In this document: one piece after another, positions 4,534 through 51,838 of the stretch
Layout: each line of letters starts with the position of its first letter
Position numbering within the stretch: the stretch's first letter is position 1
NCBI GenBank assembly: GCA_050124975.1
Contig: JASFEF010000002.1
Coordinates: forward strand, 22,690 to 86,689
Origin: Candidatus Thorarchaeota archaeon
GTDB taxonomy: Archaea; Asgardarchaeota; Thorarchaeia; Thorarchaeales; Thorarchaeaceae
Direction of reading: 5' to 3'
Length of the DNA: 64,000 nt
Position numbers and translations under genes: made by a program
Notes under the pieces: generated by a model
What the model was told of the DNA's origin: nothing
The model's database searches: none
Seen by the model: the letters and a program-made list of their open reading frames with translations, nothing else

Positions 4534-4534
4534 C

Positions 4535-5149: not shown

Positions 5150-5198
5150 TGTAATATTGTGGATTTGACATATTTATTCACCAATAGAGGTGTGAAAT

Positions 5199-5768: not shown

Positions 5769-6118
5769 AAAATGATGGTGGGCCGGGGGAGACGTATTCC
5801 GATTGGGGAAGTCCCAAGTCGTTTGAACTCCCGATCTCTTGCATTCTGTGACTTGAGGTGTAGTTCCTCAGTCGCCCCAAGCAAGAATCATACCAAGCTA
5901 GACTACCGACCCATGCTGCATGAGATATTTGATGTACTCATGACTACAGTTGCCGTATTTCGGACTTAAGATAAACATTCCCTATCCCTGGGGTTCTCAT
6001 AGATGTTTGGAACACGTGTTCAAAAAAAATCGAGGATTTTACAGAAAGATTCAGACTTATCAGTATGTTCACAATTCCAATCAATATTGCAATCAGAACA
6101 AGAGATGGCTTTGTAATG

Positions 6119-7165
6119 GTCACCGATTTAGTTTACCACGATATCTTTGTTGAACATGTAATGTCACCAGGACACCCGGAGAATCCAGAACGACTGAGAA
6201 GTGCGATGAGTTCGATAAATGCTTCAGGTCTATTAGATGATCAAAAAGTGAACCTTTTCATCCCAAAGCAAGCTCCCCTAGATAAGGTGCATCTGGTTCA
6301 TGGGGAAGCATACCTTGAAGGGGTCAAAGCAAAATCGGAGAAAGGGGGCGGTTTTTTCACTAGAGATACCTATGTTAATTCACATACATATGATGCTGCG
6401 TTATTTGCCGCGGGTGGAGGAATAGGGGCTGTGGACCGAATTATGCAAGGGGATTCTGAGAATGCCTTTATTTTGTGCAGACCTCCAGGGCATCATGCTG
6501 AGTATGAGAGAGCATTTGGTTTTTGTTTCATCAACAATGTGGCTGTAGCAGCCAAGCATCTTTTACAGAAACAAGATGTTAAACGTGTAATGATAGTGGA
6601 TTATGATGCTCATCATGGAAACGGTACACAGCGTAGTTTCTATTCTTCAAAAGATGTGCTCTACGTGGGACTCCATCAGGATGGAAGAACACTGTTTCCA
6701 GGGTCGGGATTTGCAAATGAAGTTGGAACAGGTGATGGTGAGGGGTACACTGTAAATCTTGCAATGTACCCGGGGGCAGGAGATTCTTCATATGATCGTG
6801 CTTTTTCTCAAGTGATTGAACCCATTGTTGAGTCCTATGATCCCGATTTCATCCTTGTTTCAGTTGGTTATGATGGGCATTTCGTGGATCCTTTGACTCA
6901 GCTTGGACTCACCTCTTCTGGGTTTGCAATGATGAATTCTAGATTGAAACAGTTAGCTATCTCTCATGCAGAAGGAAGGATAGCATGCTTTCTAGAAGGT
7001 GGTTACAATCTTGAAGTCATGGGAATGTGTTCATTGAACCTTCTTCAAGAGCTGGCAGGTACAAGTGTCACGGTATTCGACGATGAATACGAAGAAAGCG
7101 ATATTGCAGGTGAATACACGGATAAGTTGATTGAGAAGATTGTGGCTGATTCACCTCTGTTGTAG
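6119..7165 (+). CDS. histone deacetylase / acetoin-utilisation AcuC family deacetylase
   Basis: The HHGNGTQ motif and the arginase/deacetylase-fold signatures (PPGHHA, DYDAHHGNG) are present. The internal Met is the likely start; the longest ORF starts at 6065. Confidence 0.8.
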   Translation, partial: VTDLVYHDIFVEHVMSPGHPENPERLRSAMSSINASGLLDDQKVNLFIPKQAPLDKVHLVHGEAYLEGVKAKSEKGGGFFTRDTYVNSHTYDAALFAAGGGIGAVDRIMQGDSENAFILCRPPGHHAEYERAFGFCFINNVAVAAKHLLQKQDVKRVMIVDYDAHHGNGTQRSFYSSKDVLYVGLHQDGRTLFPGSGFANEVGTGDGEGYTVNLAMYPGAGDSSYDRAFSQVIEPIVESYDPDFILVSVGYDGHFVDPLTQLGLTSSGFAMMNSRLKQLAISHAEGRIACFLEGGYNLEVMGMCSLNLLQELAGTSVTVFDDEYEESDIAGEYTDKLIEKIVADSPLL

Positions 7166-9418: not shown

Positions 9419-9447
9419 AGTGTGCTAGCAACGTAAACCAGCTTGGT

Positions 9448-11532: not shown

Positions 11533-11621
11533 TATTCATTATACTAGAATGTTCATTCGTTTGTCAGTATCCGACTCCTTGTTCTTCTTGATTTGTATTT
11601 AAGGGCACTAATACTCATTGC

Positions 11622-12191
11622 TCATTCTGTAATGTTTTGGCGCCATCCAGAGAGTAAATCAATTAGCTCTTCACAGAGCCATCTCTCTTCATAAGCCATC
11701 TGTTTTCTCTTTTCTTGATATGCACCCGATTTGGCAACTCGGAGAATCTTTGATAATCGAGTTTCAACCAAGAAAGGGACCATACGTTGTAGTTTTTCGA
11801 TTTCGTCGTATTTTCTTGGATCTATCGATGTTCTGTCACTCTGTAATCGAAGAACCTTCCTGCTGAGTGCAGTATATAGAAATGGTTGAAATGTCTGCAG
11901 CTTATGTGGTTGTTTTTCTTCTTCACGATAGAGATTCTGAAGTCTTCTAAGTGAATCATATGCATCTTCAGGTACAATGTCTACTATATCATGTTTCAGG
12001 AACCGTTCTATAACCCAATTAGGAAGACTGGCCCGATCTCTCTTCTTGAAAGGACCTAGTTTGTTGCCCCCCACAATTATCTCAGATATTGGTTTAAGAA
12101 ATATACACTCCCGAGATTCGTTAAGGAACATCATCTCAAATCGGTTCATCTCATCTTTAGGTTCACTGCAAAGCTTCATGAAATCCCACAC
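11622..12191 (-). CDS. putative GINS subunit (Gins51-like)
   Basis: 189-aa helical ORF immediately upstream of mcm on the same strand, in the position GINS occupies in many archaeal replisome clusters. The family call is tentative. Confidence 0.3.
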   Translation of the reverse strand: MWDFMKLCSEPKDEMNRFEMMFLNESRECIFLKPISEIIVGGNKLGPFKKRDRASLPNWVIERFLKHDIVDIVPEDAYDSLRRLQNLYREEEKQPHKLQTFQPFLYTALSRKVLRLQSDRTSIDPRKYDEIEKLQRMVPFLVETRLSKILRVAKSGAYQEKRKQMAYEERWLCEELIDLLSGWRQNITE

Positions 12192-12379
12192 ATCTTTTTG
12201 GACTAGCGGAGATAAAGCCCTTGCTCTGTGATAACGAGCCAGAGTGATTAATCCTGTGTTTCATTTTTGAGGTGTAATCGTGTTGCCAGAGAATCTTTTA
12301 AGGGGTCAAGAAAGATGCGTAACAGAATTTGGCAAAAGCGGAAGACTATCACATCTTCAATATTGGATGGGAACTATAA

Positions 12380-13339
12380 ATGGATCTAGACCTGTGGACT
12401 GAGAAATATCGACCTCCAACCTTGGGCGAGATTGTTGGCCAAGAATCGTTGATTGAGAGCCTGAAGAAGTTTGTAGAAACCAAAGCAGTGCCTCACTGTT
12501 TGTTTGCAGGACCACCAGGTACCAGCAAAACCACTGCAGCAATGGCTATGGCTAGAGACCTCTTTGGCGATTCTTTTGAGCGCAATTTTATGGAGCTCAA
12601 TGCTAGTGATGAGAGAGGCATCGATGTTGTAAGGAATCAGATCAAGAACTTTGCCAGGACCATGCCATCGGGTGATGCTCCATTCAAGATACTCGTTCTC
12701 GATGAAGCTGACCATCTTACGGCAGATGCACAACATGCTTTGAGGCGTACTATGGAGTCCTATGCCGCCTCCTGTAGGATGGTGTTGATCTGTAATTATT
12801 CTAGTAGGATTATCCCACCAATTCAGTCTAGATGTGCGATATTTCGTTTCTCACGGCTTAGTAATGATGACATCGCGAGCAGACTCAAGTATATCGCCAA
12901 AAAAGAGGGGATTGGTCTTCTTGCAGGTGGAAATCAGGCGATTCTGTATCTTGTTGAGGGAGATATGAGAGCCGCTATCAACCTTCTACAAGCAGCTTCA
13001 TCTACAGGCCAAAAAGTGACTGACGAGATTGTTTACTCAATTTCAGGTAGAGCGAACCCAGAAGCTGTAAGGAAGATGCTTGATGATGCAAAAGAAGGAA
13101 AATATATTGAATCACTTGATAGCCTTAGGAATCTGATATATCAGCAAGGTGTTTCACCTGTGGATCTAGTGAAACAAATGCATCGAGAGATTGAGGGTCT
13201 CGGTCTTGATAACAAAGAACGGATGAGTATACTAAACCAGACTGCAGAAATAGAATTCCGTGTGGGTGAAGGAGCGAATGGTGAGATTCAACTTTCAGCA
13301 CTTCTGGCACGTTTAGGGTTTGGTAGTGATTCTGAATGA
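12380..13339 (+). CDS. rfcS: replication factor C small subunit
   Basis: Clamp-loader motifs are present: WTEKYRP, FAGPPGTSKTT, DEADHLT and SRC. Confidence 0.9.
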   Translation: MDLDLWTEKYRPPTLGEIVGQESLIESLKKFVETKAVPHCLFAGPPGTSKTTAAMAMARDLFGDSFERNFMELNASDERGIDVVRNQIKNFARTMPSGDAPFKILVLDEADHLTADAQHALRRTMESYAASCRMVLICNYSSRIIPPIQSRCAIFRFSRLSNDDIASRLKYIAKKEGIGLLAGGNQAILYLVEGDMRAAINLLQAASSTGQKVTDEIVYSISGRANPEAVRKMLDDAKEGKYIESLDSLRNLIYQQGVSPVDLVKQMHREIEGLGLDNKERMSILNQTAEIEFRVGEGANGEIQLSALLARLGFGSDSE

Positions 13340-14556
13340 ACGATGATAGTCTTCCTTGGGCAGAGAAACATCGTCCGAAGAAACTAGATGGACTTGTGGG
13401 GAACCCTGAAACAATAAGGACACTAAAAAGTTGGGTTGAGTCTTGGATATCAAGAGTACCAAGTAAAAGGGCTGCTCTTCTAGTTGGGCCACCAGGAACA
13501 GGAAAGACTGCATTGGTAGGGGCGCTGGCAAACGATTTAGACATGGAACTTGTTGAATTCAATTCAAGTGATAAAAGGAACAAAGATAGTATAGAAACGT
13601 TGGTCTGGAGAGCAGCAGCACAACAGACCCTTGATGGTCGACCTAGACTCATCTTGTTGGACGAAGTGGATGGTCTCTCTGGGACAAGTGATAGAGGTGG
13701 TGTTGGGGCCATCCTGAAAGTTATCAAAGATGCAGTACATCCGATTGTAATGACAGCAAATGATCCTAATAGTCCTCGTCTCAAGGACCTGATGAAAGTG
13801 TGTCAAGTCTTCAATTTTGGACTTATCGAGAATGATGATATGGAGATAGTATTGAAACATATCATATCTGAAAACGATGTGGAGGTATCTAGTGAAGCGT
13901 TAGATGAGATTATTGAGGGTTCAGGAGGCGACCTCCGTGCAGCAATTTCCGACTTAGAGTCCCAAGTAAGGAGTGGTCTAGCATCCCTAGTTGTTACACC
14001 AGCTTTCAGGGACTCGAAACGGGGGATTGAGGAAACTCTACGACACCTGTTTGCTTCTGCTGACTCCAAAGTTGCTAGAAGAACATTGTCTGAAACCGAG
14101 CTAAATCATGATTCGTTGATCTTATGGCTTGAGGAGAATCTCCATCTCCATCTTATGACCACTAAGGAATTGGATGAGGGATTTGAACAACTTTCTCGTG
14201 CAGACATGACGCTTGGAAGAATCATGAGAGACCAGAATTGGAAACTTCTTGCATATTTCTACGATTTCTTGTCTATAGGAGTAGCGATGAGTCGGTCTGA
14301 AACACCTTTTCGGCGTGTTAAATATTCACGGCCTACTTGGCCCCTTTTGGTCTGGCAGGGTAGTAGAAAGCGTGACAAACAAGCTGAAGTCTTGACATCT
14401 TTGTCGGTAGTAACAGGAGTTTCAAAGAGAAGAGTGCGGCAAACTCATCTTGACACAATTCGTGAAATTATTAGGATAAATCCTAAGAGTCTGAACGATT
14501 TCGCGATTTGGTTGAATGTTGAAAAGTCATCATTGGCTCAGAAAAGTAGTCGATGA
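13336..14556 (+). CDS. rfcL: replication factor C large subunit
   Basis: WAEKHRPKKL, VGPPGTGKT and LDEVDG motifs are present. The start overlaps the rfcS stop (ATGA), which indicates an operon. Confidence 0.8.
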   Translation: MNDDSLPWAEKHRPKKLDGLVGNPETIRTLKSWVESWISRVPSKRAALLVGPPGTGKTALVGALANDLDMELVEFNSSDKRNKDSIETLVWRAAAQQTLDGRPRLILLDEVDGLSGTSDRGGVGAILKVIKDAVHPIVMTANDPNSPRLKDLMKVCQVFNFGLIENDDMEIVLKHIISENDVEVSSEALDEIIEGSGGDLRAAISDLESQVRSGLASLVVTPAFRDSKRGIEETLRHLFASADSKVARRTLSETELNHDSLILWLEENLHLHLMTTKELDEGFEQLSRADMTLGRIMRDQNWKLLAYFYDFLSIGVAMSRSETPFRRVKYSRPTWPLLVWQGSRKRDKQAEVLTSLSVVTGVSKRRVRQTHLDTIREIIRINPKSLNDFAIWLNVEKSSLAQKSSR

Positions 14557-15346
14557 CATTAACAATGGTCCTAATTGAGCGTCTATATTGTTCAAGTTGT
14601 TCTCTTAATTGATTTCGAATCATTCTGATTGCGTTTTTGCTTGCCTTCATCTTGAATGGAACAATTGTTTCTACAAGGACCAAGTTTTCTGGAGGTGAAG
14701 GTTGAATGCCACTTGCAAGAGCTTTCTGTCCTGAGAGAATTTTGTTGATTGCCTCAAGTTCGATTCTTTCAGTTCCTATCTCTGTAAGTAGTGTGACCAT
14801 TTTGCGCACAAGTTTCCATAGAAATCGAGTTCCAAAGATATCCAGGAATAATGTATCATTATCATCATTAATGGATATATTCAGAATTGTTGTGTTTGTA
14901 TTTCGACCAGAATCAGGTTTTGCTAGTTGATTGAAATCTTTAGATCCAATTAGGAGTGATGTTGCCTTTTTGACAACCTCGAGATTCAGTTTTGCCCAAG
15001 ATTTGTCGAGATAATATCGATAGTGTCGCATTAGTACATCAAAACGCGGAATAAAATTGGGAGGAGCTTCTGTGGATGCCCACAAAATGATATCATCTGG
15101 AAGATAGCGATTGATTTTATCAATGTTGAATTGTTTTTCTGTAGTAATCATGACTAATTGCCCAATACTATGAACTCCTCTATCAGTCCTGCCAGAGATT
15201 TGTACAGTTTGAGTGGAGTGCTGCTCTTTACTCCATTTTTTGAGAGCCCCAATCAGTTCTCCTTGTACTGTAGTGTATTTCGGCTGATATTGTGAACCAT
15301 GATAATTGGTACCCAGATAGAACAAACGAGAAAGATAATTCGCCAT
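14483..15346 (-). CDS. truA: tRNA pseudouridine(38-40) synthase TruA
   Basis: The N-terminus is YLGTNYHGSQYQP and the catalytic Asp lies in the RTDRGVHS motif. The likely start is the internal Met; the longest ORF starts at 15373. Confidence 0.75.
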   Translation of the reverse strand: MANYLSRLFYLGTNYHGSQYQPKYTTVQGELIGALKKWSKEQHSTQTVQISGRTDRGVHSIGQLVMITTEKQFNIDKINRYLPDDIILWASTEAPPNFIPRFDVLMRHYRYYLDKSWAKLNLEVVKKATSLLIGSKDFNQLAKPDSGRNTNTTILNISINDDNDTLFLDIFGTRFLWKLVRKMVTLLTEIGTERIELEAINKILSGQKALASGIQPSPPENLVLVETIVPFKMKASKNAIRMIRNQLREQLEQYRRSIRTIVNVIDYFSEPMMTFQHSTKSRNRSDS

Positions 15347-15360
15347 GTCATGAATACCTC

Positions 15361-15645
15361 TCATGACTCCCAAAGATTGAACAGGCTTCTTAGTGAACGT
15401 GCTCTGAGATCTTCAATCTTGTAACGATAGATTTTGATTCTTCCAAATTTCTTCTCTTCTATAAGGCCTGAGCTCAGTAACACTTCAAGATGGGATTTTG
15501 TTGAACTATGATTGAGGTCTACTCTTCGACAAAGCTCAGAGATATTTAGCTCATTAGAAGCTGCTAGTTCCTTGAGTATCTTGATTCTGCCTCGTGATGA
15601 AAATATGTCCTCAATAGGAACTTTGGGTGAACTTTCAGCGGTCAT
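15361..15645 (-). CDS. small winged-HTH (ArsR-like) transcriptional regulator
   Basis: 94-aa ORF containing ILKELAASNELNISELCRRVDLNHSSTKSHLEVL. Confidence 0.45.
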   Translation of the reverse strand: MTAESSPKVPIEDIFSSRGRIKILKELAASNELNISELCRRVDLNHSSTKSHLEVLLSSGLIEEKKFGRIKIYRYKIEDLRARSLRSLFNLWES

Positions 15646-16856
15646 CTGTTAGCCTCCTTGGATGTATCGAGTAATCCTGACAGGAATTGCTCCAACATCT
15701 CAGCTGGAACATCCGAGAACCCAATAAGAGTAGTCTGACCTCTCTGACCTGAACCTGATTTCTTTGCATCTATTATACCGTGAGAATGAAGATCTTGGAC
15801 CCACTCCCAAATCTGAGTGTGGGCTCGTGGTTCTTCATAGTATTCCTCACATATTGAGCGATACATTTCTTCAACTTCGCCTATTGTGACATATGCACTA
15901 CGAATCTCCCGAAGCTGTCTTGCTGCTGCTAATAGTAGAAGTTTGTGCTGTGTAGGAAGTGTTACAAAAATCTCCTTTCTAAGCTCAGGATGGGTGTCTG
16001 TTTTTGCACGACGTGCATAATCAGGTATAACTACATCTACTTGGTCACTATCAGCGCCTTTGCCAGCACGCCATAAGAGCTCAATTGCATATCGTGCATC
16101 ACCGTGCTCGGAAGCAATATCACAAATGACTTGGATTGTTTCATCCATGACTGTCTTCTTCTCAAAAGCCATTTCTACACGGTCTTGGAGTATGTCATGA
16201 AGTGCGTCACGTCTATACCTCGAGAATCTGAGAACATTGCGTTGTAGGGTGCTTCGTGTACTAGAGTCTAGAATGTCATCATCAAGAGGGATTTTTCGAC
16301 CAATTCCTATAATTGAGAGACGTTGTGTTGCGTTAAGTCTATCATCCATAAGTCGTGTGAGATCATAAAGAATGTCAGCACCTCTCTGCCTTATGAAATA
16401 GTCCAGCTCATCAAGGATAAGGAGAAGATATCGATCTTCTTCATCGAGAATCTCCACTAGCATTTGTAGTAATTCGTCAGGTGAGTGTCCACGTCTAGGA
16501 AACTTAGGTTTGAATTCTCGTAGTGCTCGAAGAAAAACTAGGTATGCGGTCTTGTTGACACGGCAGTTAATGTGAATACTATGAAGTCTGATATTTCGCC
16601 TTTTTGCAGCTTGAATCATCTGTTCAGAAAACCGTTTTGCTACTGCCGTCTTCCCGGTTCCTACAGGCCCCTCAATGATGAACTTGTGACTTGTTCGACC
16701 TGGTGAACTGATTAGGGTCTTAAAACTTTGAACAAGTGTCCTAATCTCAGATTGTCGATGAGGAAGACTTTCAGGCACATAGTCGATAGATAAGAACTGC
16801 TCTGATTTGAATACACTACGTCTGCTGAGTTCATCTTCAACATAGTCGTGAGGCAT
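15642..16856 (-). CDS. orc1: Orc1/Cdc6 replication initiator
   Basis: 404-aa ORF with AAA+ motifs (GPVGTGKT; DELD) and a C-terminal winged helix. Confidence 0.85.
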   Translation of the reverse strand: MPHDYVEDELSRRSVFKSEQFLSIDYVPESLPHRQSEIRTLVQSFKTLISSPGRTSHKFIIEGPVGTGKTAVAKRFSEQMIQAAKRRNIRLHSIHINCRVNKTAYLVFLRALREFKPKFPRRGHSPDELLQMLVEILDEEDRYLLLILDELDYFIRQRGADILYDLTRLMDDRLNATQRLSIIGIGRKIPLDDDILDSSTRSTLQRNVLRFSRYRRDALHDILQDRVEMAFEKKTVMDETIQVICDIASEHGDARYAIELLWRAGKGADSDQVDVVIPDYARRAKTDTHPELRKEIFVTLPTQHKLLLLAAARQLREIRSAYVTIGEVEEMYRSICEEYYEEPRAHTQIWEWVQDLHSHGIIDAKKSGSGQRGQTTLIGFSDVPAEMLEQFLSGLLDTSKEANR

Positions 16857-36436: not shown

Positions 36437-36596
36437 CAAGTAAAATGCTTTCACAGATTGTTCATATTTACATCAGTTCACACGTTAGTTGTGTGAATGG
36501 CGCCTTTATTGTGAACACTCTGGGAGAAACGGGCTTCTTAATGCCTTAATATCGGAATGGAGGCGTGATATGTTCTATGATACCTGTGAATGGACA

Positions 36597-36623
36597 CACC
36601 CCTTCGTTTCCAGTGGAAACAGG
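36597..36623 (-). promoter_or_regulatory. origin recognition box (ORB)-like element
   Basis: The bottom strand reads TTTCCACTGGAAACGAAGGGGGTGT, a perfect mini-ORB dyad plus G-string. It sits in a 480-bp non-coding region. Confidence 0.5.
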
Positions 36624-36916
36624 AAAGAAGACCTATGAAATGCTTACACACTCATTCACAAGAAGTATAGATTAGTGAATGATGAATTGGCTGGAGAATG
36701 TCGTTCTTTCAACGAAAAAAGGGCTCATATTGCTTTTTTATGGCTAATAGGGTCTGACAGGACGTCAGCACAGTAAAAACGAAGTGGACGAGTCCTATAT
36801 GTGTACAGACACACTATGTAGCTCTTATCTTGGTATAGATAATTCACATACTCACACTTATTTGGAATCTAACTCTAGTTCATTGTGAATAGTCAACAGT
36901 ATCGGAGAGATTATGT

Positions 36917-37546
36917 TTGACAAGCGAAGACAGAACTAACTATGTGTATGAGTTTACATACAGTTCAGCACCAGGTCTTCGTGAAATATTCCAGTGTAAA
37001 TATGTCAGACCAGATGAAGCACTTAACAGGTTTAGAAAGATCCTTGCGCTAACTGAGTCGCCCTTTGATTTCAAAATTATTGTGTCTGATGAAACAATGG
37101 GGGAGGAATCGAGTTTTCAGGTGAAGGGCGGCAGTATTGAGGAGATGTTTGTCAAGTTCAAAGTCTTTCTGGAAACAAGTACAGGATTCATCTTTGAGCC
37201 AGTCAGTGAAGAGGTCACAGAGGTCGGAATCGAGGAAGCCCGTTTTGAGTCGATGAGTAATTACGACAAGATGCAGGTGATAATCTATGCGTCATTCAAA
37301 CATGGGAAATTCTCTTCGCTTGATGTCACCGAAATTTACCAAGACTCCTTCAGTGAGGACCTTCCAAAGAGTACGGCTTCCACATATCTAGCAAGAATGT
37401 GGAACAACGGAAAAGGACACCTAGAACGATATGGAAATCGTTCTGGCTACACATATCGACTCAGAACTGAAATTGCAGAAGTTCAGAAAGAAACTGAGCG
37501 GGCAGAGGAACTTCTAGCTGCAATACAAATGCGAGTCAGGGATTGA
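36917..37546 (+). CDS. hypothetical protein, possible C-terminal winged helix
   Basis: 209-aa ORF with no recognised catalytic motifs. Confidence 0.3.
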   Translation: MTSEDRTNYVYEFTYSSAPGLREIFQCKYVRPDEALNRFRKILALTESPFDFKIIVSDETMGEESSFQVKGGSIEEMFVKFKVFLETSTGFIFEPVSEEVTEVGIEEARFESMSNYDKMQVIIYASFKHGKFSSLDVTEIYQDSFSEDLPKSTASTYLARMWNNGKGHLERYGNRSGYTYRLRTEIAEVQKETERAEELLAAIQMRVRD

Positions 37547-37593: not shown

Positions 37594-38910
37594 CTACAGA
37601 TCAAATGTATTTTCGTCCATCTTGATGTCCAGTGTTTCTAGCTCGTCGAGGATTGGTTCATAGATTTCAGGAATTATAGGTCTGTGAACACCTGTCAGGA
37701 TTATCTTCCCATCTAGAATCATTTTACTGGCTATAGCTACTGGAAGAGCTACGGTCCTAGACATTGAACTGTCCCCATTTGGAATACCATAGTCAATGAG
37801 AGTAGACGTGATTCTTTCTTTCTTGTCTGGATACTCTGCTATGAACTCGTGATGCATGACTATCATATCACGCTCGCCTGGGGCATACTGTAGCTTCTCT
37901 TCAAAGAGATTGCATACTGCATCTAGGATTGTGTTGGTTCCAGAAGCAATCTGTTTTTCTTCAAACAGACCCAACCATTCCAAGCGATTGATAATTTGGT
38001 CATCAAGATCAATGTTACAGGTTTTAGCCACTGCAATCTTAACATCTGAATCACTGGTTAATGTTAGTTCACGCATTAGAGTAGCATATGTCATACCTTC
38101 AAGAGACCGTTCCTCTATGTCTAACAAGCCCAAATCTGCAATCTTGTCTAGTGTGCCACACCAACCAACATTCCTGAACGTTCCGCGAAGCATCGTCTTT
38201 GTTTCTGGAATACTGTAGATGTCAATGTAAGAGAGGCTGTCACGGTTTGGGTATCCTTCGAAAGTACCCATTCCCGGAACCTCCATGAGCTCGCAGTTAT
38301 CAAAGAGCTCAGAACCAGGGATTCTGACTTCTTTCCCATCACGGAGGAACTGCGCGTCGTTGCGCCCAGCTAGGAGAACTCCTCGTGGGCTCCACGATAA
38401 TTTGTAGCCATATGGATTGTTGTTTGCATCAGGAGCAGGAAGACCCCCAGTGAAAGAAGTAAAGCTCACAATCTTACCATCATTGTTGTGAACATGGTCA
38501 ATGATTTTCATGGCACTCATGTGATCGATACCTGGGTCAACTCCACACTCATTCAGGATTAAGATTCCAGCCTTCTTTGCATCTTCTTCGAGAGCTTTCA
38601 TCTCGTCTGAGATGTACGATGTAGTACAGAAGTGTGTCTTGTGTTTGATAGCGATCTTGGCAGCCTTCACGTGAAACGTGTAAGGTAGCAGAGAGCATAC
38701 AAGATCGACCTTCTTGGTTAACTCTTCTAGGAGCTCATCATCTTTTGCTATATTGAAAGCCACGGCTTCGGTGTTTTTACAGCCCTCAATAAGTCGTTCA
38801 GCTTTGCTTATTGTCCTACTTGCAACAATGACATGGAAATCATTGTCGGAAAGGTATTGTATGTATGGGCGAGCTACTAATCCTGCACCCAGACATAGTA
38901 CTTTCTTCAT
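37594..38910 (-). CDS. saccharopine dehydrogenase (NADP-binding, LYS9 / AASS C-terminal-domain-like)
   Basis: The N-terminal Rossmann segment is MKKVLCLGAGLVARPYIQYL and the length (438 aa) matches Sacchrp_dh enzymes. Confidence 0.65.
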   Translation of the reverse strand: MKKVLCLGAGLVARPYIQYLSDNDFHVIVASRTISKAERLIEGCKNTEAVAFNIAKDDELLEELTKKVDLVCSLLPYTFHVKAAKIAIKHKTHFCTTSYISDEMKALEEDAKKAGILILNECGVDPGIDHMSAMKIIDHVHNNDGKIVSFTSFTGGLPAPDANNNPYGYKLSWSPRGVLLAGRNDAQFLRDGKEVRIPGSELFDNCELMEVPGMGTFEGYPNRDSLSYIDIYSIPETKTMLRGTFRNVGWCGTLDKIADLGLLDIEERSLEGMTYATLMRELTLTSDSDVKIAVAKTCNIDLDDQIINRLEWLGLFEEKQIASGTNTILDAVCNLFEEKLQYAPGERDMIVMHHEFIAEYPDKKERITSTLIDYGIPNGDSSMSRTVALPVAIASKMILDGKIILTGVHRPIIPEIYEPILDELETLDIKMDENTFDL

Positions 38911-38912
38911 TC

Positions 38913-40217
38913 TTAGTTGTCCTCCTTTGGAAGGTATTGTTCTAGATATTGAAATTCCTCAGTTAGTTTTCCTCGGTATACAATCACAGCATCCTTGAAC
39001 TCCCGAGGTAATTCAAGATTTGAAAAATCAACAGTAAAATCTGCGTTCGCAAGAGCTGGTATAAAGTCAAGAAGTGTTTCACTGAAAGATGTAGAAGACT
39101 CACGCGGGAGCTCGCATGGTAAGTTATCAACAGCCATGACTACTGGTCCCTCACCTTCTACACCCAGCTTTGCTCTATTCTCATCAATAATAAAGGTAAA
39201 TGCAGGTTTGTCCGGACTCATGCATCGTACGGTGAACTCTATTGCACCTTTAACATCGCAGGAGATATCGCCGACAACCTGAAGTCTTCGTTCATCCTTG
39301 CTCCAGTGGTTGCGGATAAAATCGAGTGTGACTAGTCGAGGGTACTTGTCTGACCAATAGATGCAGTTCATTAGTACTGTGATGTGAGGGACATGTTTAT
39401 GGAATATGCCCTCATACTTTGTTTTTCCATTCTTATAGTAATCTTGAAGATCAAACTCTGCTGAGTGGTCTTTTGGTTGAACCATGTGTTCTTCCTTGAA
39501 AACGCACTTGTAGAGAAAGTTTGATTCTGGTGTTAAGCTGGATAGCTCATCAGGATTGACGGTCTTGTGTGGAAGAATATCAAAGATTTCTTGTGCACCT
39601 CGGGAAACATTCCCATAACCTGCAAACCCTACCACAAAGGGTGTGAGTTCACTAGGAAGTCCCTGTTCTTTAATACGGTTACCAAGAAACTCGAACTCTT
39701 CCTTTAGTTCATTAAGTTCTTTTATCTCGAGTGTTGTTTTCATTCCAGCAAATGGGTTGGGTGTTATGCCCATCAGTTCCAGACGATTACCGAGAACACG
39801 AAGTGTGTCTGAGATTCCAGCCATACCAGCCCAGTTACCAAAGAAGATTAACCTTCGACCTTTTTCATCGACAACTCGTTCATAATCAATCAGTGTAGCG
39901 CCGACATCCATTATCCGTTTGAGCATAGGCATGTTACTAGTTTGACCCTTGATGGTGTGACTGAAGAAGATGTAGACAATGTCTTTTTCGAAGATGTCAC
40001 TGGGCATCTCTTTTATTCCCATGATAATAGGAGTACCACTACCTTTCAAGGGAGCGACATCAATGTTATACTCTTCCTCAGAAAATGCACGTTGATTACT
40101 AGGTTCTAGTACAAAATCAATGCCATGTTTTTCACGAAGTAATCTAACATGATCGGGCACTAGTGGAACTCGGGTTTCGAATGGTTTCTCTTCCTTTCTG
40201 AGACCGATCTTGTTCAA
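38913..40217 (-). CDS. lysine-ketoglutarate reductase / saccharopine dehydrogenase (AlaDH/PNT-fold, LYS1 / AASS N-terminal-domain-like)
   Basis: 434-aa ORF with AlaDH/PNT N- and C-domains. It sits immediately upstream of the Sacchrp_dh gene with a 2-nt gap. Confidence 0.6.
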   Translation of the reverse strand: MNKIGLRKEEKPFETRVPLVPDHVRLLREKHGIDFVLEPSNQRAFSEEEYNIDVAPLKGSGTPIIMGIKEMPSDIFEKDIVYIFFSHTIKGQTSNMPMLKRIMDVGATLIDYERVVDEKGRRLIFFGNWAGMAGISDTLRVLGNRLELMGITPNPFAGMKTTLEIKELNELKEEFEFLGNRIKEQGLPSELTPFVVGFAGYGNVSRGAQEIFDILPHKTVNPDELSSLTPESNFLYKCVFKEEHMVQPKDHSAEFDLQDYYKNGKTKYEGIFHKHVPHITVLMNCIYWSDKYPRLVTLDFIRNHWSKDERRLQVVGDISCDVKGAIEFTVRCMSPDKPAFTFIIDENRAKLGVEGEGPVVMAVDNLPCELPRESSTSFSETLLDFIPALANADFTVDFSNLELPREFKDAVIVYRGKLTEEFQYLEQYLPKEDN

Positions 40218-40334
40218 TGATTATCCTCCATTTTCAAGCTCAAATTGGGTGTGGTGCTGAGGCCGTGGGCGAAGATACCCCCGCTTTAACTTTTCCCTGT
40301 TGGCCAAGTTTTGTATTACTAGCACTAAAAATCA

Positions 40335-40346
40335 GAACACGTGTTC
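40335..40346. repeat. 12-bp palindrome GAACACGTGTTC, copy 1 of 4
   Basis: Perfect palindrome with an E-box-like CACGTG core. It overlaps the GTG start of ORF 40341. Confidence 0.8.
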
Positions 40347-40658
40347 TTCAATTGGATGGTTCACTTGACATCGTATCTGTATCTTTATGATTGCCAGCAA
40401 GCCCGACGAACTAATGCTAGACGTGTTGCATTCACAAAGGAGCTCTATGGTTATTTCTACTCATGGAGAACAAAATCTGGAATCAAACAAAAAAGAAAAC
40501 CAGGTCTATTGGATGAGTGTCCTGGTGCTGAAGCTGTAGCGGACTCAGCTATTCTTGTGCCTTCTGAACATCGTATTGTGTTTAATGCCCTTTTCAAAAT
40601 GTATGAAGATATTCTCAAGTTAAAGATCTTTGAAGTTGTCCAAGAATTGGAGTGGTAA
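40341..40658 (+). CDS. hypothetical small basic protein
   Basis: 105-aa ORF bracketed by palindrome copies 1 and 2. It may start at the internal ATG at 40356. Confidence 0.25.
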   Translation: MFFNWMVHLTSYLYLYDCQQARRTNARRVAFTKELYGYFYSWRTKSGIKQKRKPGLLDECPGAEAVADSAILVPSEHRIVFNALFKMYEDILKLKIFEVVQELEW

Positions 40659-40668
40659 TTAACACTTC

Positions 40669-40680
40669 GAACACGTGTTC
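40669..40680. repeat. 12-bp palindrome GAACACGTGTTC, copy 2 of 4
   Basis: Perfect palindrome. Confidence 0.8.
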
Positions 40681-40735
40681 TAAATATCATCAAGACACTA
40701 TTACTTGTATTACAATCTGTTCAGTTATGATCCCT

Positions 40736-40788
40736 TTCCATTGGAACTCATTCTAACTATGGTTTCTTCCACTGGAACACGTGTTCCA
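40736..40788. promoter_or_regulatory. pair of mini-ORB-like dyads (TTCCATTGGAA, TTCCACTGGAA), the second fused to palindrome copy 3 (TGGAACACGTGTTCCA, 40773-40788)
   Basis: Read directly from the sequence. Confidence 0.55.
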
Positions 40789-40796
40789 TTAACAAT

Positions 40797-40820
40797 CGAA
40801 CCCCCTTGTTTCCACTAGAG
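40797..40820 (-). promoter_or_regulatory. ORB element (bottom strand CTCTAGTGGAAACAAGGGGGTTCG)
   Basis: It matches the archaeal ORB architecture of a dyad followed by GTGGAAAC and a G-string, and it is inverted relative to the ORB at 40945. Confidence 0.6.
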
Positions 40821-40920
40821 ATTATTAATATGTATCTAATCGTATAAATATCAAAAAATATATATAATCGTTTCAGCAGCCTTCATTTATCTCCATTTTT
40901 AATATATATATTATTACCCG
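40821..40920. promoter_or_regulatory. AT-rich putative DNA unwinding element between inverted ORBs
   Basis: About 100 bp of sequence above 80% AT (…ATATCAAAAAATATATATAATCG…TTTTTAATATATATATTATTA), flanked by inverted ORBs. Confidence 0.55.
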
Positions 40921-40944
40921 CCGAAGGTATTCTCCATAAGATCT

Positions 40945-40964
40945 CTCGAGTGGAAACCAAGGGG
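40945..40964 (+). promoter_or_regulatory. ORB element (CTCGAGTGGAAACCAAGGGG)
   Basis: Near-identical to the reverse complement of the element at 40797-40820. Confidence 0.6.
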
Positions 40965-41011
40965 TCTTATCCAGATACATTTTGACGGATTACCTAGATG
41001 GGGTTAACACA

Positions 41012-41023
41012 ATACTCACTAGA
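41012..41023. repeat. 12-bp palindrome GAACACGTGTTC, copy 4 of 4
   Basis: Perfect palindrome 100 bp upstream of iorA. Confidence 0.8.
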
Positions 41024-41122
41024 ACACGTGTTCCAATAATGAAAATCGTATTGTCCAAGACCACAAAACTGATACAGCACACACAATTCAAACCGAATCA
41101 TCCATACGCGGAGGATCAATGA

Positions 41123-43015
41123 TTGGCAAAGCCCAAGGAACTTCTTGAGGACAAACCAGGGAAGGAGATTCTTCTTCTTGCCAATGAAGCAATTGCTCGA
41201 GGTGTACTGGAAGCAGGTGTCAGACTAGTGGCACTTTATCCTGGTACACCAAGTAGCGAAATTGGAAATAATCTGACGTTCATGGCTCCACACATCCCAA
41301 ACTTCTATTTTGAATTCAGTACAAATGAGAAGGTTGCTCTAGAGGTGGCTGGTGCTGCCGCCGTTGCAGGTGTGAGATCCATGATGGTCTGCAAGGGTCC
41401 GGGTCTCAATGTTGCTGCAGATCCATTTTTCTCACTAACATATGTTGGTGTTCGAGGAGGGATGGTGATTGTCGTAGCTGATGATCCAAGTATGTGGAGC
41501 TCACAAAATGAGAATGATAGTCGATACTATGCCCTAATGGGAAACATGCCATTGATGGAACCCTCTGATCCCATTGAAGCAAAATCAATGTTGCTTGAGG
41601 CCTACAAGTTCTCAGAAAAACTAGAACTTCCAGTACTCTTCCGTACAACTACCAGGGTAAACCATACACGAGCACCTGTTAAGTTCGGGAAGATTCCTTC
41701 ACGCCCAGATAAGATTGAGTTTGAAAAGGAACCATTCCGTTTTGTTCCTGTTCCATCTGTCGCACGCAAAAGACATCCTTGGCTTCTTGAACAGATAGAC
41801 AAAGCACGCAAATTATCAGAGAAAAGCCCTCTGAACTTTGTCGAGGGTGAAGGTGATCTTGGAATAATCACTTCGGGTGTTTCCTACAACTATGTGATTG
41901 AAGCATTATCAATCATGGAAATTGACGCTGAGGTCCTGAAGCTTGGAATCACTCATCCAATTCCTGAGAAAATGATCACCGAATTTCTACGTCGTCACAA
42001 ACAAGTATTGATTGTTGAAGAGCTAGAACCGTTTCTCGAAACACATGCAAGGCGGTTGGCTCATCTGAACAATGTTACCGTAGAAGTCCTTGGAAAGGAA
42101 CAAGGAATCTTTTCTCGTGTCTATGAGTACAGTCCAAGGATTGTCATGGAAGCATTGAAGAAAGTTACTACACGTAATACACCTATTAACTGGGATGAGA
42201 TTGAGAAAAAGACCCGAAAATTGCCTGAGTTACCTCCAAGACCTCCACTTCTTTGTGCGGGGTGTCCTCATAGAGCAACTTACTATGCGATTCGGGCAGC
42301 GACTAGAGGGAAAGCAATCTACCCTTCCGACATTGGTTGCTATACTCTAAGCATTGCACCTCCACTAGAAACGGCTGACATATTGTTCGATATGGGATCA
42401 TCAATAACCACTGCATGTGGTCTTGCAGAAGTCACTGACCAAGATGTTGTTGCATCAATTGGGGACAGTACATTCTTTGCATCTGGTCTTCCAGGCATTG
42501 CGAATGCAGTCTACAATCAACACAGAATTTGCGTAGTAGTTCTAGACAATCGAACAACAGCAATGACTGGCCATCAGCCGCATCCTGGTACTGGAATAAC
42601 TGGTATGCAAAAGGAAGTCCCGCCTCTAGATATAGCAGAAGCATGCAAGGGTCTGGGTGTCAAATACGTCAAGACTGTTGAACCATTTGAATCAATGGCA
42701 GGCCTAGTTGCTGAAGTTCGTGAGATGGTCAAATGGACGAGGGAGAATCACAGTCCTGCAGTACTAGTTTCAATAGAACCATGTGCACTTCTCACTGCTG
42801 CTGATCGTAGACGTACTGGCAAGTTCCCACCCAAATACTATGTCGATTCAAAGATTTGTAATGCATGCAAACGTTGTTTCAATCGGCTTTCCTGTCCTGC
42901 AATGTATATGGACTCAGAAACAGAACAAGCTGTGATTGATGAAACTCTGTGCAACCTCTGCGGAACTTGTGTTTCAGTTTGTCCACAGGGTGCAATAAAG
43001 CAGGAGGATACATAA
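41123..43015 (+). CDS. iorA: indolepyruvate:ferredoxin oxidoreductase alpha subunit
   Basis: 630-aa ORF with TPP-binding domains and two C-terminal 4Fe-4S motifs (CNACKRC...CP and CNLCGTCVSVCP). Confidence 0.8.
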   Translation: MAKPKELLEDKPGKEILLLANEAIARGVLEAGVRLVALYPGTPSSEIGNNLTFMAPHIPNFYFEFSTNEKVALEVAGAAAVAGVRSMMVCKGPGLNVAADPFFSLTYVGVRGGMVIVVADDPSMWSSQNENDSRYYALMGNMPLMEPSDPIEAKSMLLEAYKFSEKLELPVLFRTTTRVNHTRAPVKFGKIPSRPDKIEFEKEPFRFVPVPSVARKRHPWLLEQIDKARKLSEKSPLNFVEGEGDLGIITSGVSYNYVIEALSIMEIDAEVLKLGITHPIPEKMITEFLRRHKQVLIVEELEPFLETHARRLAHLNNVTVEVLGKEQGIFSRVYEYSPRIVMEALKKVTTRNTPINWDEIEKKTRKLPELPPRPPLLCAGCPHRATYYAIRAATRGKAIYPSDIGCYTLSIAPPLETADILFDMGSSITTACGLAEVTDQDVVASIGDSTFFASGLPGIANAVYNQHRICVVVLDNRTTAMTGHQPHPGTGITGMQKEVPPLDIAEACKGLGVKYVKTVEPFESMAGLVAEVREMVKWTRENHSPAVLVSIEPCALLTAADRRRTGKFPPKYYVDSKICNACKRCFNRLSCPAMYMDSETEQAVIDETLCNLCGTCVSVCPQGAIKQEDT

Positions 43016-43016
43016 T

Positions 43017-43631
43017 ATGTCTAGCAACATTGGTAATACAGTAAATATTGCAATCACTGGAGTAGGAGGCCAAGGGGTTCTAACCCTTGCTGAGATTTTA
43101 GCTAAGGCGGCATTACAATGCGGTCTCAATGTTCGCGTCGGAGAGATTCATGGCATGGCCCAACGAGGGGGTCATGTTGTCTGTACAGTCCGTATAGGTG
43201 AGAATGCAAAAGGTCCGATTGTGGATTCTGGTTCTGCTCATCTTCTTGTTGGCTTTGAACCTATTGAAACTCTTAGAGAGATTCAGCTCATAAGACAGGG
43301 TGGCTGTGTCCTGATGAGTTCACATGTTCAATATCCAGTTGCCGTTTCAATGGGAAAGGCTGAGTACCCAAATCATGATGAGATAATCAAGAGCATGAAA
43401 AAATACACTGACAAGATAGTCGAGTTTGATGCTTTAGAACTTGCAGCAAAAGCTGGAAGCACCCGTGCGCTCAATATGGTCATGCTAGGAGCAATCATAG
43501 GCACTGGTCTAGTCCCAATCACTGAGAAAGTTGCAATCAATGTTGTCCGTGAAACATTTCCAAAGAAATTCGAGAAGATTAATACCACTGCGACAAAACT
43601 AGGACTTGAACAGGCAAAATCTTGTAGTTAA
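43017..43631 (+). CDS. iorB: indolepyruvate:ferredoxin oxidoreductase beta subunit
   Basis: 204-aa ORF with the gamma-like domain ITGVGGQGVLT. It is translationally coupled to iorA. Confidence 0.75.
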   Translation: MSSNIGNTVNIAITGVGGQGVLTLAEILAKAALQCGLNVRVGEIHGMAQRGGHVVCTVRIGENAKGPIVDSGSAHLLVGFEPIETLREIQLIRQGGCVLMSSHVQYPVAVSMGKAEYPNHDEIIKSMKKYTDKIVEFDALELAAKAGSTRALNMVMLGAIIGTGLVPITEKVAINVVRETFPKKFEKINTTATKLGLEQAKSCS

Positions 43632-50803: not shown

Positions 50804-51838
50804 TCATTGTACCTCCTTGAGTAGAGTTGCATATGCTTCAGAAACAAGCTCAGCAATGTTCCTAGTCACGTCTGGATTTCCAGAATTTCTAAAATTCTCA
50901 GCCGCCACTTGTTGGCATCCACGCGCCAACATTCGTATATCACGTGGATTTCCTTTCGCTGCTGTATTGATGACTTTCACTGCATCATCAGAAAAGGGGT
51001 AAACATCATAGTCATCTGGATCGAAACTATCAATTTGTCCCTGTGCGTAAGCAATCCGTCGACCTATGAATTCCCTCGCCTTTGCATCATTAAGTGGGGG
51101 AACATCAAGAGGTTCGGTACGGTCAGCTATTTGCGGCAAGAATGAAAGCATCGCATTCCAGTATATCAGAGTTCCAGACATTACCAAGGTGAAAATGGGT
51201 TCATCAAGAGCTCCTGAGTAGGCATCAATCATCTCCTCAGTCGGCAAGTCTGCAAGGAACCTTAACTTGTGAAATGCAGCCTCTTGATTATCTGCAACAT
51301 CTTCAATGAACAATGCAGTACGACTCCTTTCTTCGAGATATCTTCGAAGACTTTCTTTCGCAACTGCATCAATAATCTGACTAGACTCCCATGACCTTCG
51401 ATATTTTATTCTAAGAGAATCAGCAATCGCCGAGGCCATTTGTTTCTCATAGAGACCGGTCATACCTACATAGCCAGTGATGAATTTGTTACCCTTGCGA
51501 TCAGCTAGTGTAGGTAGGTCTCTCAAGGCCAAGAGCATCAGTGTGCTTTTTCCTGAACCTACTGGTCCTCGAATGAAGACATGACGCTCATTCGTGATAA
51601 TCAGGTCAACAATGGAATCCAGAAAGTCACTGTCTTCTATATACAGACGACTGTCCGGCATCTTGAAGCCACGAAAAGGTGAGAATCTAGCACCAATCTT
51701 CTCTTCCCAAGCGCGAAGAACTTCTTTGCGTGTATTGAAGTGACGAATCAATGCACTCTCATAAATTGCAATTGTCATCTTGTGGGCCTCTAAAGATTTG
51801 GTATCACAAGTACTTCTTGTAATACAATTTCGAAACAA
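50804..51838 (-). CDS. AAA+ ATPase with Orc1/Cdc6-like sensor-2 but no winged-helix domain
   Basis: Walker A is IRGPVGSGKSTLM, Walker B is LFIEDV and sensor-1 is TLVMSGT. GNPRDIRMLARGCQQVAAE resembles the Orc1/Cdc6 GDAR...L.LL sensor-2 segment. The ORF is 344 aa; the start may be the internal Met at about 51778. Confidence 0.5.
   Translation of the reverse strand: MFRNCITRSTCDTKSLEAHKMTIAIYESALIRHFNTRKEVLRAWEEKIGARFSPFRGFKMPDSRLYIEDSDFLDSIVDLIITNERHVFIRGPVGSGKSTLMLLALRDLPTLADRKGNKFITGYVGMTGLYEKQMASAIADSLRIKYRRSWESSQIIDAVAKESLRRYLEERSRTALFIEDVADNQEAAFHKLRFLADLPTEEMIDAYSGALDEPIFTLVMSGTLIYWNAMLSFLPQIADRTEPLDVPPLNDAKAREFIGRRIAYAQGQIDSFDPDDYDVYPFSDDAVKVINTAAKGNPRDIRMLARGCQQVAAENFRNSGNPDVTRNIAELVSEAYATLLKEVQ

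Follow-up and report, generated by a model that had tools for sequence, protein, structure and literature searches.

Archaeal origins that depend on Orc1 are defined by origin recognition boxes (ORBs) placed in inverted orientation on either side of an AT-rich element (PMC12141716; PMC4010727). In Sulfolobus, oriC1 contains an additional element, ucm, which origin firing requires and to which the 111-aa basic protein UBP binds (Dhanaraju et al. 2025; PMC12141716). The ucm element is an 11-bp, non-palindromic sequence (ATTATACAAAAG) in the middle of the DNA unwinding element (DUE) between the ORBs, where it is bound by a UBP monomer; UBP, which is limited to Sulfolobales and Desulfurococcales, is also found at approximately 330 other, mainly intergenic sites, and the authors ask about analogous factors in other archaea (PMC12141716). 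Asgard replication origins have so far been inferred solely from GC skew (PMC11291895). In the literature, we found no account of Asgard origin cis-elements or accessory factors beyond GC skew, and none of flanking palindromes or an invertible core at archaeal origins. In the present study, we analysed a 64,000-nt stretch of contig JASFEF010000002.1 of a Candidatus Thorarchaeota archaeon (hereafter the window), in which the 12-bp palindrome GAACACGTGTTC recurs around a putative replication origin. We favour, with some reservation, the explanation that GAACACGTGTTC is the core of an 18-bp binding site for a homodimeric protein that marks origin boundaries and acts at a few promoters. The Asgard archaea are the closest archaeal relatives of eukaryotes, and the palindrome would point to an undescribed origin-associated DNA-binding factor in them.

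By analogy, ucm and UBP are the nearest functional precedent for the palindrome. Both elements are short non-ORB sequences in an Orc1-type origin with further, mostly intergenic copies, and in both cases a basic protein of approximately 100 aa comes into question, though the protein with beta-hairpins that reads ucm is established by experiment and the reader of the palindrome is only a candidate. Unlike ucm, the palindrome is 18 bp long and symmetric, lies outside the ORBs, is present in two to four copies and belongs to another lineage. It offers a testable answer to the question of the UBP authors on non-initiator origin proteins, for which the oligonucleotide and candidate proteins are in hand.

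The palindrome and the putative origin module in the window

Five exact copies of GAACACGTGTTC are present in the window, at 6010–6021, 40335–40346, 40669–40680, 40775–40786 and 41022–41033, whereas 0.01 copies are expected by chance from 100 dinucleotide-preserving shuffles, none of which contained five. A preliminary description of this DNA had claimed four copies with a non-random occurrence; the non-randomness and the copies at 40335, 40669 and 40775 were confirmed, but the copy placed at 41012 in fact begins 10 bp further on, so that the end given for the cluster, 41023, cuts it, and the copy at 6010–6021 had been missed. Allowing up to two mismatches added five scattered matches in the window compared to approximately 2.3 expected from shuffles; the enrichment is thus one of the exact form of GAACACGTGTTC, not of two-mismatch variants. 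The four clustered copies lie inside the 905-bp gap separating two divergent operons. Alignment of the sites showed that GAACACGTGTTC is the core of an 18-bp perfect palindrome, TTRGAACA-YR-TGTTCYAA (TTRGAACACGTGTTCYAA), with T, T and R kept on one side and Y, A and A on the other.

The ORB, as Robinson et al. reportedly defined it in 2004, consists of a dyad (TCCAnTGGAAA) followed 3–4 nt away by a G-string (GGGG), an asymmetric element said to be bound with polarity by a monomer. Between the third and fourth copies of the palindrome, the left ORB (ACCCCCTTGTTTCCACTAGAGA; 40800–40821, minus strand), whose G-string is distal to the AT-rich core, is followed by this core (40822–40943), a putative DUE, and by the right ORB (TCTCGAGTGGAAACCAAGGGGT; 40944–40965, plus strand), which is inverted relative to the left one. 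The ORB/DUE module proposed earlier is thus real. The left ORB is invariant in close relatives and conserved phylum-wide, and the core contains two conserved asymmetric motifs, CAAAAAATATATATAATCG at 40852–40870 (consensus AAAAGTATAWATA, which loosely resembles ucm) and TTTATCTCCATTTTT at 40886–40900. The only other exact match to the ORB pattern in the window is a third canonical ORB, ACCCCTTCGTTTCCAGTGGAAAC (36597–36620, minus strand), in the region upstream of the gene p209. The palindrome itself is not an ORB, as it has neither the ORB dyad nor a G-string, both of which are present in the neighbouring elements at 40800–40821 and 40944–40965.

The first copy (site A, 40335–40346) and the second (site B, 40669–40680) are exact matches that bracket a small gene, site A lying 18 nt 5' of its probable start and site B 10 nt past its stop codon. 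A conserved TATA-like element, TGTATTAC (40313–40319), lies 14 nt 5' of site A. The bracketing had been recognised before, with the gene taken for a 105-aa basic open reading frame (ORF) starting at GTG 40341 inside site A. The gene is real, but its start is most likely TTG 40365, 18 nt past site A, giving a 97-aa basic protein (YLYLYDC..ARRTNARRVAFTKELYGY..; 40365–40658, plus strand), because conservation begins at YLYLYDC, in other clades the proteins start two to four residues earlier, and an independent gene call on an identical contig gives 97 aa. This small protein has 162 homologues, nearly all from Thorarchaeota metagenome-assembled genomes (the nearest, from SMTZ1-45, with 96% identity), and is very strongly conserved, with a mean column identity of 68% and 27 residues invariant in 44 sequences.

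The third copy (site C, 40775–40786) is extended to the 16-bp TGGAACACGTGTTCCA at 40773–40788. It is the phased copy, separated by 14 bp from the G-string of the left ORB, on whose outer side it lies. As described earlier, it is fused to an ORB-like dyad, TTCCACTGGAA (40767–40777), with an overlap of 3 nt that is found only in a sub-clade of close relatives. The fourth copy (site D, 41022–41033) is upstream of iorA and, on the outer side of the right ORB, 57 bp from the G-string; the distance from the end of site D to the TTG start at 41123 is 89 bp rather than the 100 bp first given.

Conservation and phasing across Thorarchaeota

The orthologous locus was compared in 66 species-level Thorarchaeota genomes (1.13 Mb in total), in all of which the gene order is p334, p209, SDH, LKR, small gene, iorA, iorB and hypF; in the window, the pair of genes for lysine-ketoglutarate reductase (LKR) and saccharopine dehydrogenase (SDH) is at 37594–40217 (minus strand) and iorAB at 41123–43631 (plus strand). 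These loci contain 150 exact 12-mers, all but six of them in the 0.7-kb origin interval, which is delimited by the starts of LKR and iorA, and no one-mismatch variant was found outside this interval in approximately 1.2 Mb. Three sites are kept phylum-wide, one approximately 30 bp before the small gene, one after it and one before iorA. Site A, at approximately −30 from the small-gene start, is exact or has one mismatch in nearly all 66 loci, and its position is also held in L076, L077 and L193; site B is conserved across Thorarchaeota; and site D does not vary among close relatives and occurs in 61 of the 63 loci with iorA. The extra site C is confined to the clade of the window, where B and C are separate sites.

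This distribution bears on the explanation that no protein site is involved and that the copies reflect a k-mer bias, a restriction-type site, an RNA hairpin or a terminator. The CACGTG centre is a common type II recognition core, and the second copy lies just past a stop codon. However, the copies are position-specific and almost all intergenic, rather than scattered uniformly through coding sequence as the preliminary description had expected of such a bias, and there is no enrichment of one-mismatch variants beyond the locus. In addition, the 12-nt palindrome could form a stem of 4 bp at most with no T-run after it, its conservation is one of sequence and not of pairing, and Rfam gave no match on 40150–41200, on the leader of the p115 gene described below or on 5700–6070. 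This explanation, to which we assign almost no probability, is effectively refuted by the distribution data.

The layout of palindrome, ORB, core, ORB and palindrome is likewise conserved across Thorarchaeota. Two inverted ORBs with an AT-rich element are present in at least 61 of the loci, as well as in L068, L071, L076, L201–L204 and L206, and the phylum-wide forms are ACCCC-N3/4-TTTCCAcT on the left and, inverted, TTCcAGTGGAAA-N3/4-GGGGT on the right. The distance from the 12-mer to the first G-string base of the ORB is exactly 14 bp in 47 ORB–palindrome pairs and 11–16 bp in a few more, and the sequence of this spacer is not conserved. Insertions in L022 (1.5 kb) and L020 have split the post-gene site from the small-gene stop codon, and the site remains with the ORBs; similarly, an insertion in L062 parts iorA from its upstream palindrome, which remains near the ORB. 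The palindromes thus follow the ORBs and not the flanking genes. Taken together, these loci define a conserved origin module at base resolution, consisting of palindrome, 14 bp, ORB, asymmetric core, ORB and palindrome.

In two related species (L027 at 5794 and L029 at 5795), an exact palindrome is located inside the nucleotidyltransferase-like coding region of p334, approximately 650 bp 5' of p209. These are among the few copies in coding regions.

Inversion of the origin core

The side of the module on which the palindrome is phased at 14 bp varies by clade, and it matches the orientation of the core motifs in all 43 informative loci (32 left/forward, 11 right/reverse and none discordant). 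At least six changes of orientation are required on a neighbour-joining tree of iorA. When the sister taxa L044 and L045 are compared, the 222-bp segment between the palindromes shows 82% identity as the reverse complement compared to 64% in forward orientation, while the outer flanks are collinear with 85–88% identity, and identity runs up to the palindromes. Because the phased side and the core orientation agree and the identity between L044 and L045 reaches the palindromes, the comparison indicates that palindrome, 14 bp, ORB, core and ORB invert as a unit with breakpoints in the palindromes. The ORBs would not be the breakpoints, since recombination between them would leave the phased site in place. 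The inversions are differences between species, and the palindromes, being identical, have probably acted as the sites of crossing over at which the entire origin core was repeatedly inverted. Such repeated inversion between identical palindromes is unusual and bears on the co-evolution of origin polarity and neighbouring transcription units.

These data could also mean that the palindromes are dedicated site-specific recombination sites and the origin core an invertible cassette, with regulatory binding being secondary. The clean 222-bp inversion with breakpoints inside the palindromes, the number of independent inversions and the perfect agreement between core orientation and phased side are as expected of such a cassette. 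However, no conserved recombinase or integrase is among the annotated neighbours in any neighbourhood, lone copies in unrelated promoters cannot pair for inversion, and a perfectly symmetric site gives no directionality. Furthermore, homologous recombination between 18-bp inverted repeats, occurring rarely, would account for six events across the phylum. Dedicated recombination sites are therefore improbable in our estimation.

Origin loci of other Asgard classes

Distant relatives of the small protein were found in Jordarchaeales/Freyarchaeia, Odinarchaeia, a Sif-like lineage and further Asgard lineages, in which the small gene is always within 1–2 kb of orc1/cdc6 and the gene for the polD small subunit, together with a p209 homologue. 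These two replication genes mark the classical archaeal origin neighbourhood. The origin module adjoins orc1/cdc6 in the Jord/Frey, Odin and Sif-like lineages and in two further Asgard lineages. The module thus resembles archaeal origins of the oriC1 type in its ORB dyad and G-string, in the inversion of the ORBs around an AT-rich core and, in most Asgard classes examined, in its position beside orc1/cdc6 and polD; the Thorarchaeota module differs in lying between metabolic operons, away from orc1/cdc6. Two unannotated origin-linked genes, the small gene and p209, are common to the Thor-, Frey/Jord-, Odin- and Sif-like lineages.

Several of these lineages carry the palindrome, including variants such as GAACATGTGTTC and GAACATATGTTC. 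In L071, TTAGAACATATGTTCTAA occurs twice and flanks ORB–DUE–ORB; the centre is changed from CG to TA at both sites, preserving the symmetry of the palindrome. A Jordarchaeales genome (L068) contains GAACATGTGTTC twice in tandem at the small-gene stop codon, 16 bp before an ORB, and TTGGAACACGTGTTCCAA further on. L074 has two palindromes, with an ORB-like element 15 bp past the first, and the gap between palindrome and ORB is 15–16 bp in Jordarchaeales, L071 and L074. In L076 and L193, a palindrome lies 24 bp before the small gene, and in Freyarchaeum, palindromes lie on both sides of the small gene, beside an ORB pair. Because iorAB and LKR are absent from several non-Thorarchaeota loci that keep the palindromes, the element follows the origin and the small gene and not the metabolic operons. 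The regulation of iorA implied by the preliminary description is weakened by the same loci.

The Odinarchaeia loci are a natural loss case. In L201 (6999–7229) and L204 (7039–7355), the small gene abuts ORB–DUE–ORB, with an ORB 4 nt past the stop codon and no GAACA..TGTTC in the locus.

Proposed role at the origin boundary

Considering these results, we propose the following scenario. A homodimeric, sequence-specific protein would bind the palindromes at the origin boundary and at other sites, the densest cluster forming the outer boundary of a chromosomal replication origin, with one copy on each side of ORB–DUE–ORB. The phased copy, 14 bp outside the G-string, would adjoin the expected seat of the AAA+ domain of Orc1/Cdc6, and the protein may delimit the origin core or modulate the action of Orc1 and MCM. 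Bound at site A, over the core promoter, it would repress the small gene, and at single sites elsewhere, such as those of a deacetylase gene, p115 and others, it may play an ordinary role as a transcription factor or nucleoid-associated protein. The preliminary description had already named as the likeliest reader a DNA-binding protein that works as a dimer and serves as a regulator or an accessory factor of the origin; the 18-bp palindrome, its fixed positions, the 14-bp phasing to the ORB and the other promoter sites speak for this suggestion.

Several observations weigh against this scenario. The second flanking palindrome lies at a variable distance of 23–63 bp from its ORB. The only sign that replication starts there is the turning point of the cumulative G–C curve at approximately 38 kb in the window; the polarity of the turn is opposite to the bacterial convention, and skew alone could equally mark a terminus. 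The orc1/cdc6 gene is 24 kb away from the ORB module. The small protein has no known DNA-binding domain and shows only a weak fold likeness, to Cas2/CutA-like ferredoxin folds. In Odinarchaeum yellowstonii LCB4, which has a closed chromosome, and in a second Odinarchaeote, the small gene, a p209-like gene, a TrmB-like gene and ORB–DUE–ORB are present without a palindrome; the palindrome is thus dispensable for the Odinarchaeia origin, and no local protein is strictly tied to it. Finally, LKR, SDH, the small gene and iorAB keep the same order in all 66 Thorarchaeota species, and within the phylum the palindromes may therefore also regulate the promoters of these operons.

The last point is also what would be expected if the palindromes were ordinary operators of a local metabolic transcription factor acting on LKR/SDH, iorAB and the small gene, with the proximity of the ORBs being incidental. 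Site A is 118 bp 5' of the LKR start and site D 89 bp 5' of the iorA start, each followed by an A/T-rich, TATA-like stretch, and other copies are in clear promoter positions (at a histone deacetylase [HDAC] gene, p115 and rps10/IPK). However, in Jordarchaeales, Freyarchaeum, L074 and L076, palindromes persist together with the small gene and the ORBs although iorAB and LKR are missing; the element with which the palindrome is phased, at 14 bp, is the ORB, while iorA lies anywhere from 88 to 254 bp away; and the inversions shift the phased site from the small-gene side to the iorA side while the genes are unchanged. We thus consider a purely local metabolic operator unlikely and retain binding of a dimer at the origin boundary as the preferred explanation.

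Clustered non-initiator sites at or near an origin, with copies elsewhere, are also formed by the bacterial IHF and Fis sites at oriC and by the parS sites of ParB. The parS site is a 16-bp palindrome with a CACGTG centre. Its half-site, GTTTCAC, differs from GAACAC of the palindrome, and these systems belong to another domain of life with other replication machinery; no ParB, IHF or Fis homologue was seen.

Candidate readers of the palindrome

Possible readers were compared in 11 non-redundant origin loci from lineages outside the 66 orthologous Thorarchaeota loci, among them L077 from a deep Thor-like lineage. The small gene is present in nine of these lineages, seven of which have palindromes, and the two lineages without it (L203 and L206) have none. 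A p209-like gene is present in all 11 lineages, seven of them with palindromes, and a TrmB-like gene in six (of 12 loci, L074 and L205 being one contig), three of them with palindromes. The small gene therefore shows the best co-occurrence with the palindrome, though weakly (Fisher exact p ~0.11). The TrmB-like neighbour of 92–106 aa was rejected as the reader, since five palindrome-bearing lineages lack it and four lineages without the motif have it.

Site A lies between the conserved TATA-like TGTATTAC and the start codon of the small gene. This is a typical position for an archaeal repressor, and the placement would fit autoregulation of the small gene. The product of the small gene is the most likely single candidate for the reader, although the probability that it is the reader falls somewhat short of even. 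The earlier suggestion that the small ORF encodes the reader thus stands as a candidacy only: palindromes occur only in lineages with the gene in the origin region, but Odinarchaeia have the gene without the palindrome, and no DNA-binding domain was recognised in the protein.

No Pfam (to E ≤ 10), NCBIfam or PADLOC (to E ≤ 10) family matched the small protein, and its profile found no Protein Data Bank (PDB) chain at E < 0.05, only spurious phospholipase A2 matches. An exhaustive comparison of the profile with 1.8 billion representatives yielded 13 clusters only; the family is small and lineage-restricted. The confident AlphaFold model (predicted local distance difference test [pLDDT] 89.8) shows a ferredoxin-like alpha/beta fold, and its N-terminal half is basic. 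No match at E < 0.001 was obtained in PDB and viral fold searches, and the only PDB matches with low root-mean-square deviation were the Cas2 chains 5h1o_A and 8d3l_E (Foldseek probability 0.96–0.98, E ~0.05, template modelling [TM] score 0.44–0.48). Cas2 and the small protein are alike in the beta-alpha-beta-beta-alpha-beta ferredoxin-like fold and in an invariant Asp ending strand 1. However, no Cas2 profile in Pfam or PADLOC matched, the TM score is approximately 0.45, and no CRISPR array, cas1 or other cas gene was found at any locus, the small gene being always origin-proximal. UBP (9EFD-F) was absent from the sequence and fold matches of the small protein, and it was not searched for elsewhere in the genome.

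It is conceivable, though doubtful, that the 97-aa Cas2-fold protein is an Asgard-only, sequence-specific origin-boundary factor of a new class that, as a dimer on 18-bp palindromes, docks 14 bp from ORB-bound Orc1/Cdc6, controls helicase loading or firing, represses its own gene and, by way of its paired sites, makes the core a reversible cassette. If this were true, the polarity of the origin relative to the chromosome could switch.

A second candidate is p209 (36917–37546, plus strand), or one of its homologues of 150–165 aa, since a winged helix–turn–helix (wHTH) dimer is a classical palindrome binder. A wHTH-like segment lies in the C-terminal part of p209, with a long helix after it, and some of the 306 p209 homologues match PF03965 (BlaI-type repressor) or carry the names wHTH or ArsR in their source. 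Within Thorarchaeota, its identity is 83–100%. BLASTP ties p209 to neighbours of the small gene in L068, L071, L074 and L076, and the family extends to Odin-, Frey- and Sif-archaeia; a homologue adjoins the small gene in L071 and L068 and neighbours orc1/cdc6 in the Odin, Frey and Sif-like lineages, so that p209 is in the same origin neighbourhood in all Asgard classes examined. However, a p209-like gene is also present in four origin loci without the palindrome (L201, L204, L203 and L206), the region upstream of p209 lacks the palindrome and carries an ORB together with repeats of another kind, which read TGTGAAY in Thorarchaeota and in L071 and GTTAAC in Jordarchaeales, and the AlphaFold model of p209 is poor (pLDDT 55). 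p209 itself had no Pfam or other family match and no PDB relative. We thus regard p209 as a less likely reader than the small protein, though one to be taken seriously, and an unlinked factor would take the probability left over by these two.

Members of the p209 family are at 6001–6462 in L201, 6001–6492 in L202, 6303–6758 in L074, 6006–6470 in L076, 4459–4962 in L071 and 3981–4445 in L068. They are unannotated, combine N-terminal beta-beta-alpha repeats with a C-terminal winged helix and, in Odin-, Frey/Jord- and Sif-like lineages, lie beside orc1/cdc6 and polD, and within Thorarchaeota p209 is more conserved than its neighbours. Upstream of p209, 36476–36884 holds 7 of the 33 TGTGAAY repeats of the window within 0.4 kb, besides the third ORB; GTGAAT repeats precede the p209-like gene in L071 (~4100–4500), as GTTAAC repeats do in the Jordarchaeales L068 (~4560–4930). 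These repeats may be a second class of origin-region motif or a p209 operator.

Copies away from the origin

The fifth copy in the window (6010–6021) is outside the origin, 43 nt 5' of the ATG of a histone-deacetylase-family gene (6065–7165). Metagenomes were scanned with the strict 18-mer, which excludes many origin copies, including all five of the window, and gives no per-genome counts. It was found in at least 120 stretches; about seven of the matches listed are origin loci, 114 of the 120 stretches listed being classed as non-origin, and some high-GC stretches listed are probably chance matches in unrelated organisms. Among the matches listed, 87 of 132 sites are 5'-proximal to genes and 16 of 132 are clearly in coding sequence. 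At least approximately 10 listed contigs carry the same palindrome 5' of HDAC homologues with 51–89% identity, and the fifth copy is therefore a conserved target. At least 17 listed loci have the palindrome 5' of p115, a gene for a 115-aa protein with no Pfam family, and genes for ZIP, HdrA-like, leucine-rich-repeat and PPase/thioredoxin proteins each appear two or three times among the matches listed. The reader would thus behave as a transcription factor or a sequence-specific nucleoid protein whose densest cluster of sites is at the origin. In viral contigs scanned for the 18-mer, two isolated matches were found and were taken as chance.

At the p115 loci, the palindrome is followed by 45 nt, a strong TATA-like element with a B recognition element (BRE/TATA-like; TAGAAATATTTATATA), a GC hairpin (GGCCGGGAGGCC), an ORB-like element (CTCCATCGGAAACGAAGGGGGT) and p115. 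The ORB in the leader suggests Orc1-dependent regulation or a second replication-related site. Examples are L083 8089–8300 and L106 11622–11800, with 15 other metagenome loci.

The recurrent targets bear on the possibility that the element is a LexA-type SOS (Cheo) box marking a DNA-damage regulon. The 12-mer fits GAAC-N4-GTTC, the operator of Gram-positive LexA, and a review on SOS induction in Staphylococcus aureus lists the identical 12-mer string (PMC11442139). However, the likeness to the Cheo box is one of sequence only, in an archaeal host; the targets are the origin and HDAC, p115, ZIP and HdrA-like genes, not repair genes; and no LexA-like or S24-domain gene is among the scanned proteins of the window or the fetched loci. 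The palindrome also differs from the Cheo consensus in its conserved flanks (TTR/YAA) and in the centre that it tolerates (YR), and a LexA box is accordingly very improbable. The NrpR operator (GGAA-N6-TTCC) was rejected as well, since the third copy fits it but the other copies lack the outer G/C, the conserved core being GAACA..TGTTC.

The 14-kb metagenome contig L198 contains four exact palindromes (at 1649, 5058, 9151 and 9261) outside a recognisable origin locus. Within it, 3915–5878 is an approximately 2-kb stretch without ORFs of at least 100 aa.

Other features of the window

The replication genes of the window are clustered at 7169–16856. They encode a Hel308-like helicase (7169–9418, minus strand), MCM (9448–11532, minus strand), the small (12380–13339) and large (13336–14556) subunits of RFC, and Orc1/Cdc6 (15642–16856, minus strand; Pfam Cdc6_C, Cdc6_lid and AAA_22), the presumed reader of the ORBs. 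No ORB was found in the 1.1-kb region 5' of orc1/cdc6. A 344-aa AAA protein (50804–51838) was rejected as Orc1 because it has no Cdc6 domains.

GTATTAC-type elements accompany the palindromes, namely TGTATTAC at 40313–40319 and TATTACTTGTATTACA past the second copy (40700–40715), and similar pairs are present in L014, L047, L048 and L068 (6258–6280). They may be TATA-like promoter elements or the site of another protein.

ARAGORN found just two tRNAs, both distant from the palindrome locus. A tRNA-like sequence at 5779–5912 (minus strand), missed by ARAGORN and Rfam, is divergent to the deacetylase gene, with the fifth palindrome between them. Its acceptor stem pairs (GGGTCGG/CCGGCCC), it has a D-arm-like GTAGTCTAGCTTGG, and its T-arm is split by an insertion. 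Multi-intron tRNAs are reported to be common in Asgard genomes (PMC11291895), and the sequence at 5779–5912 is probably a multi-intron tRNA.

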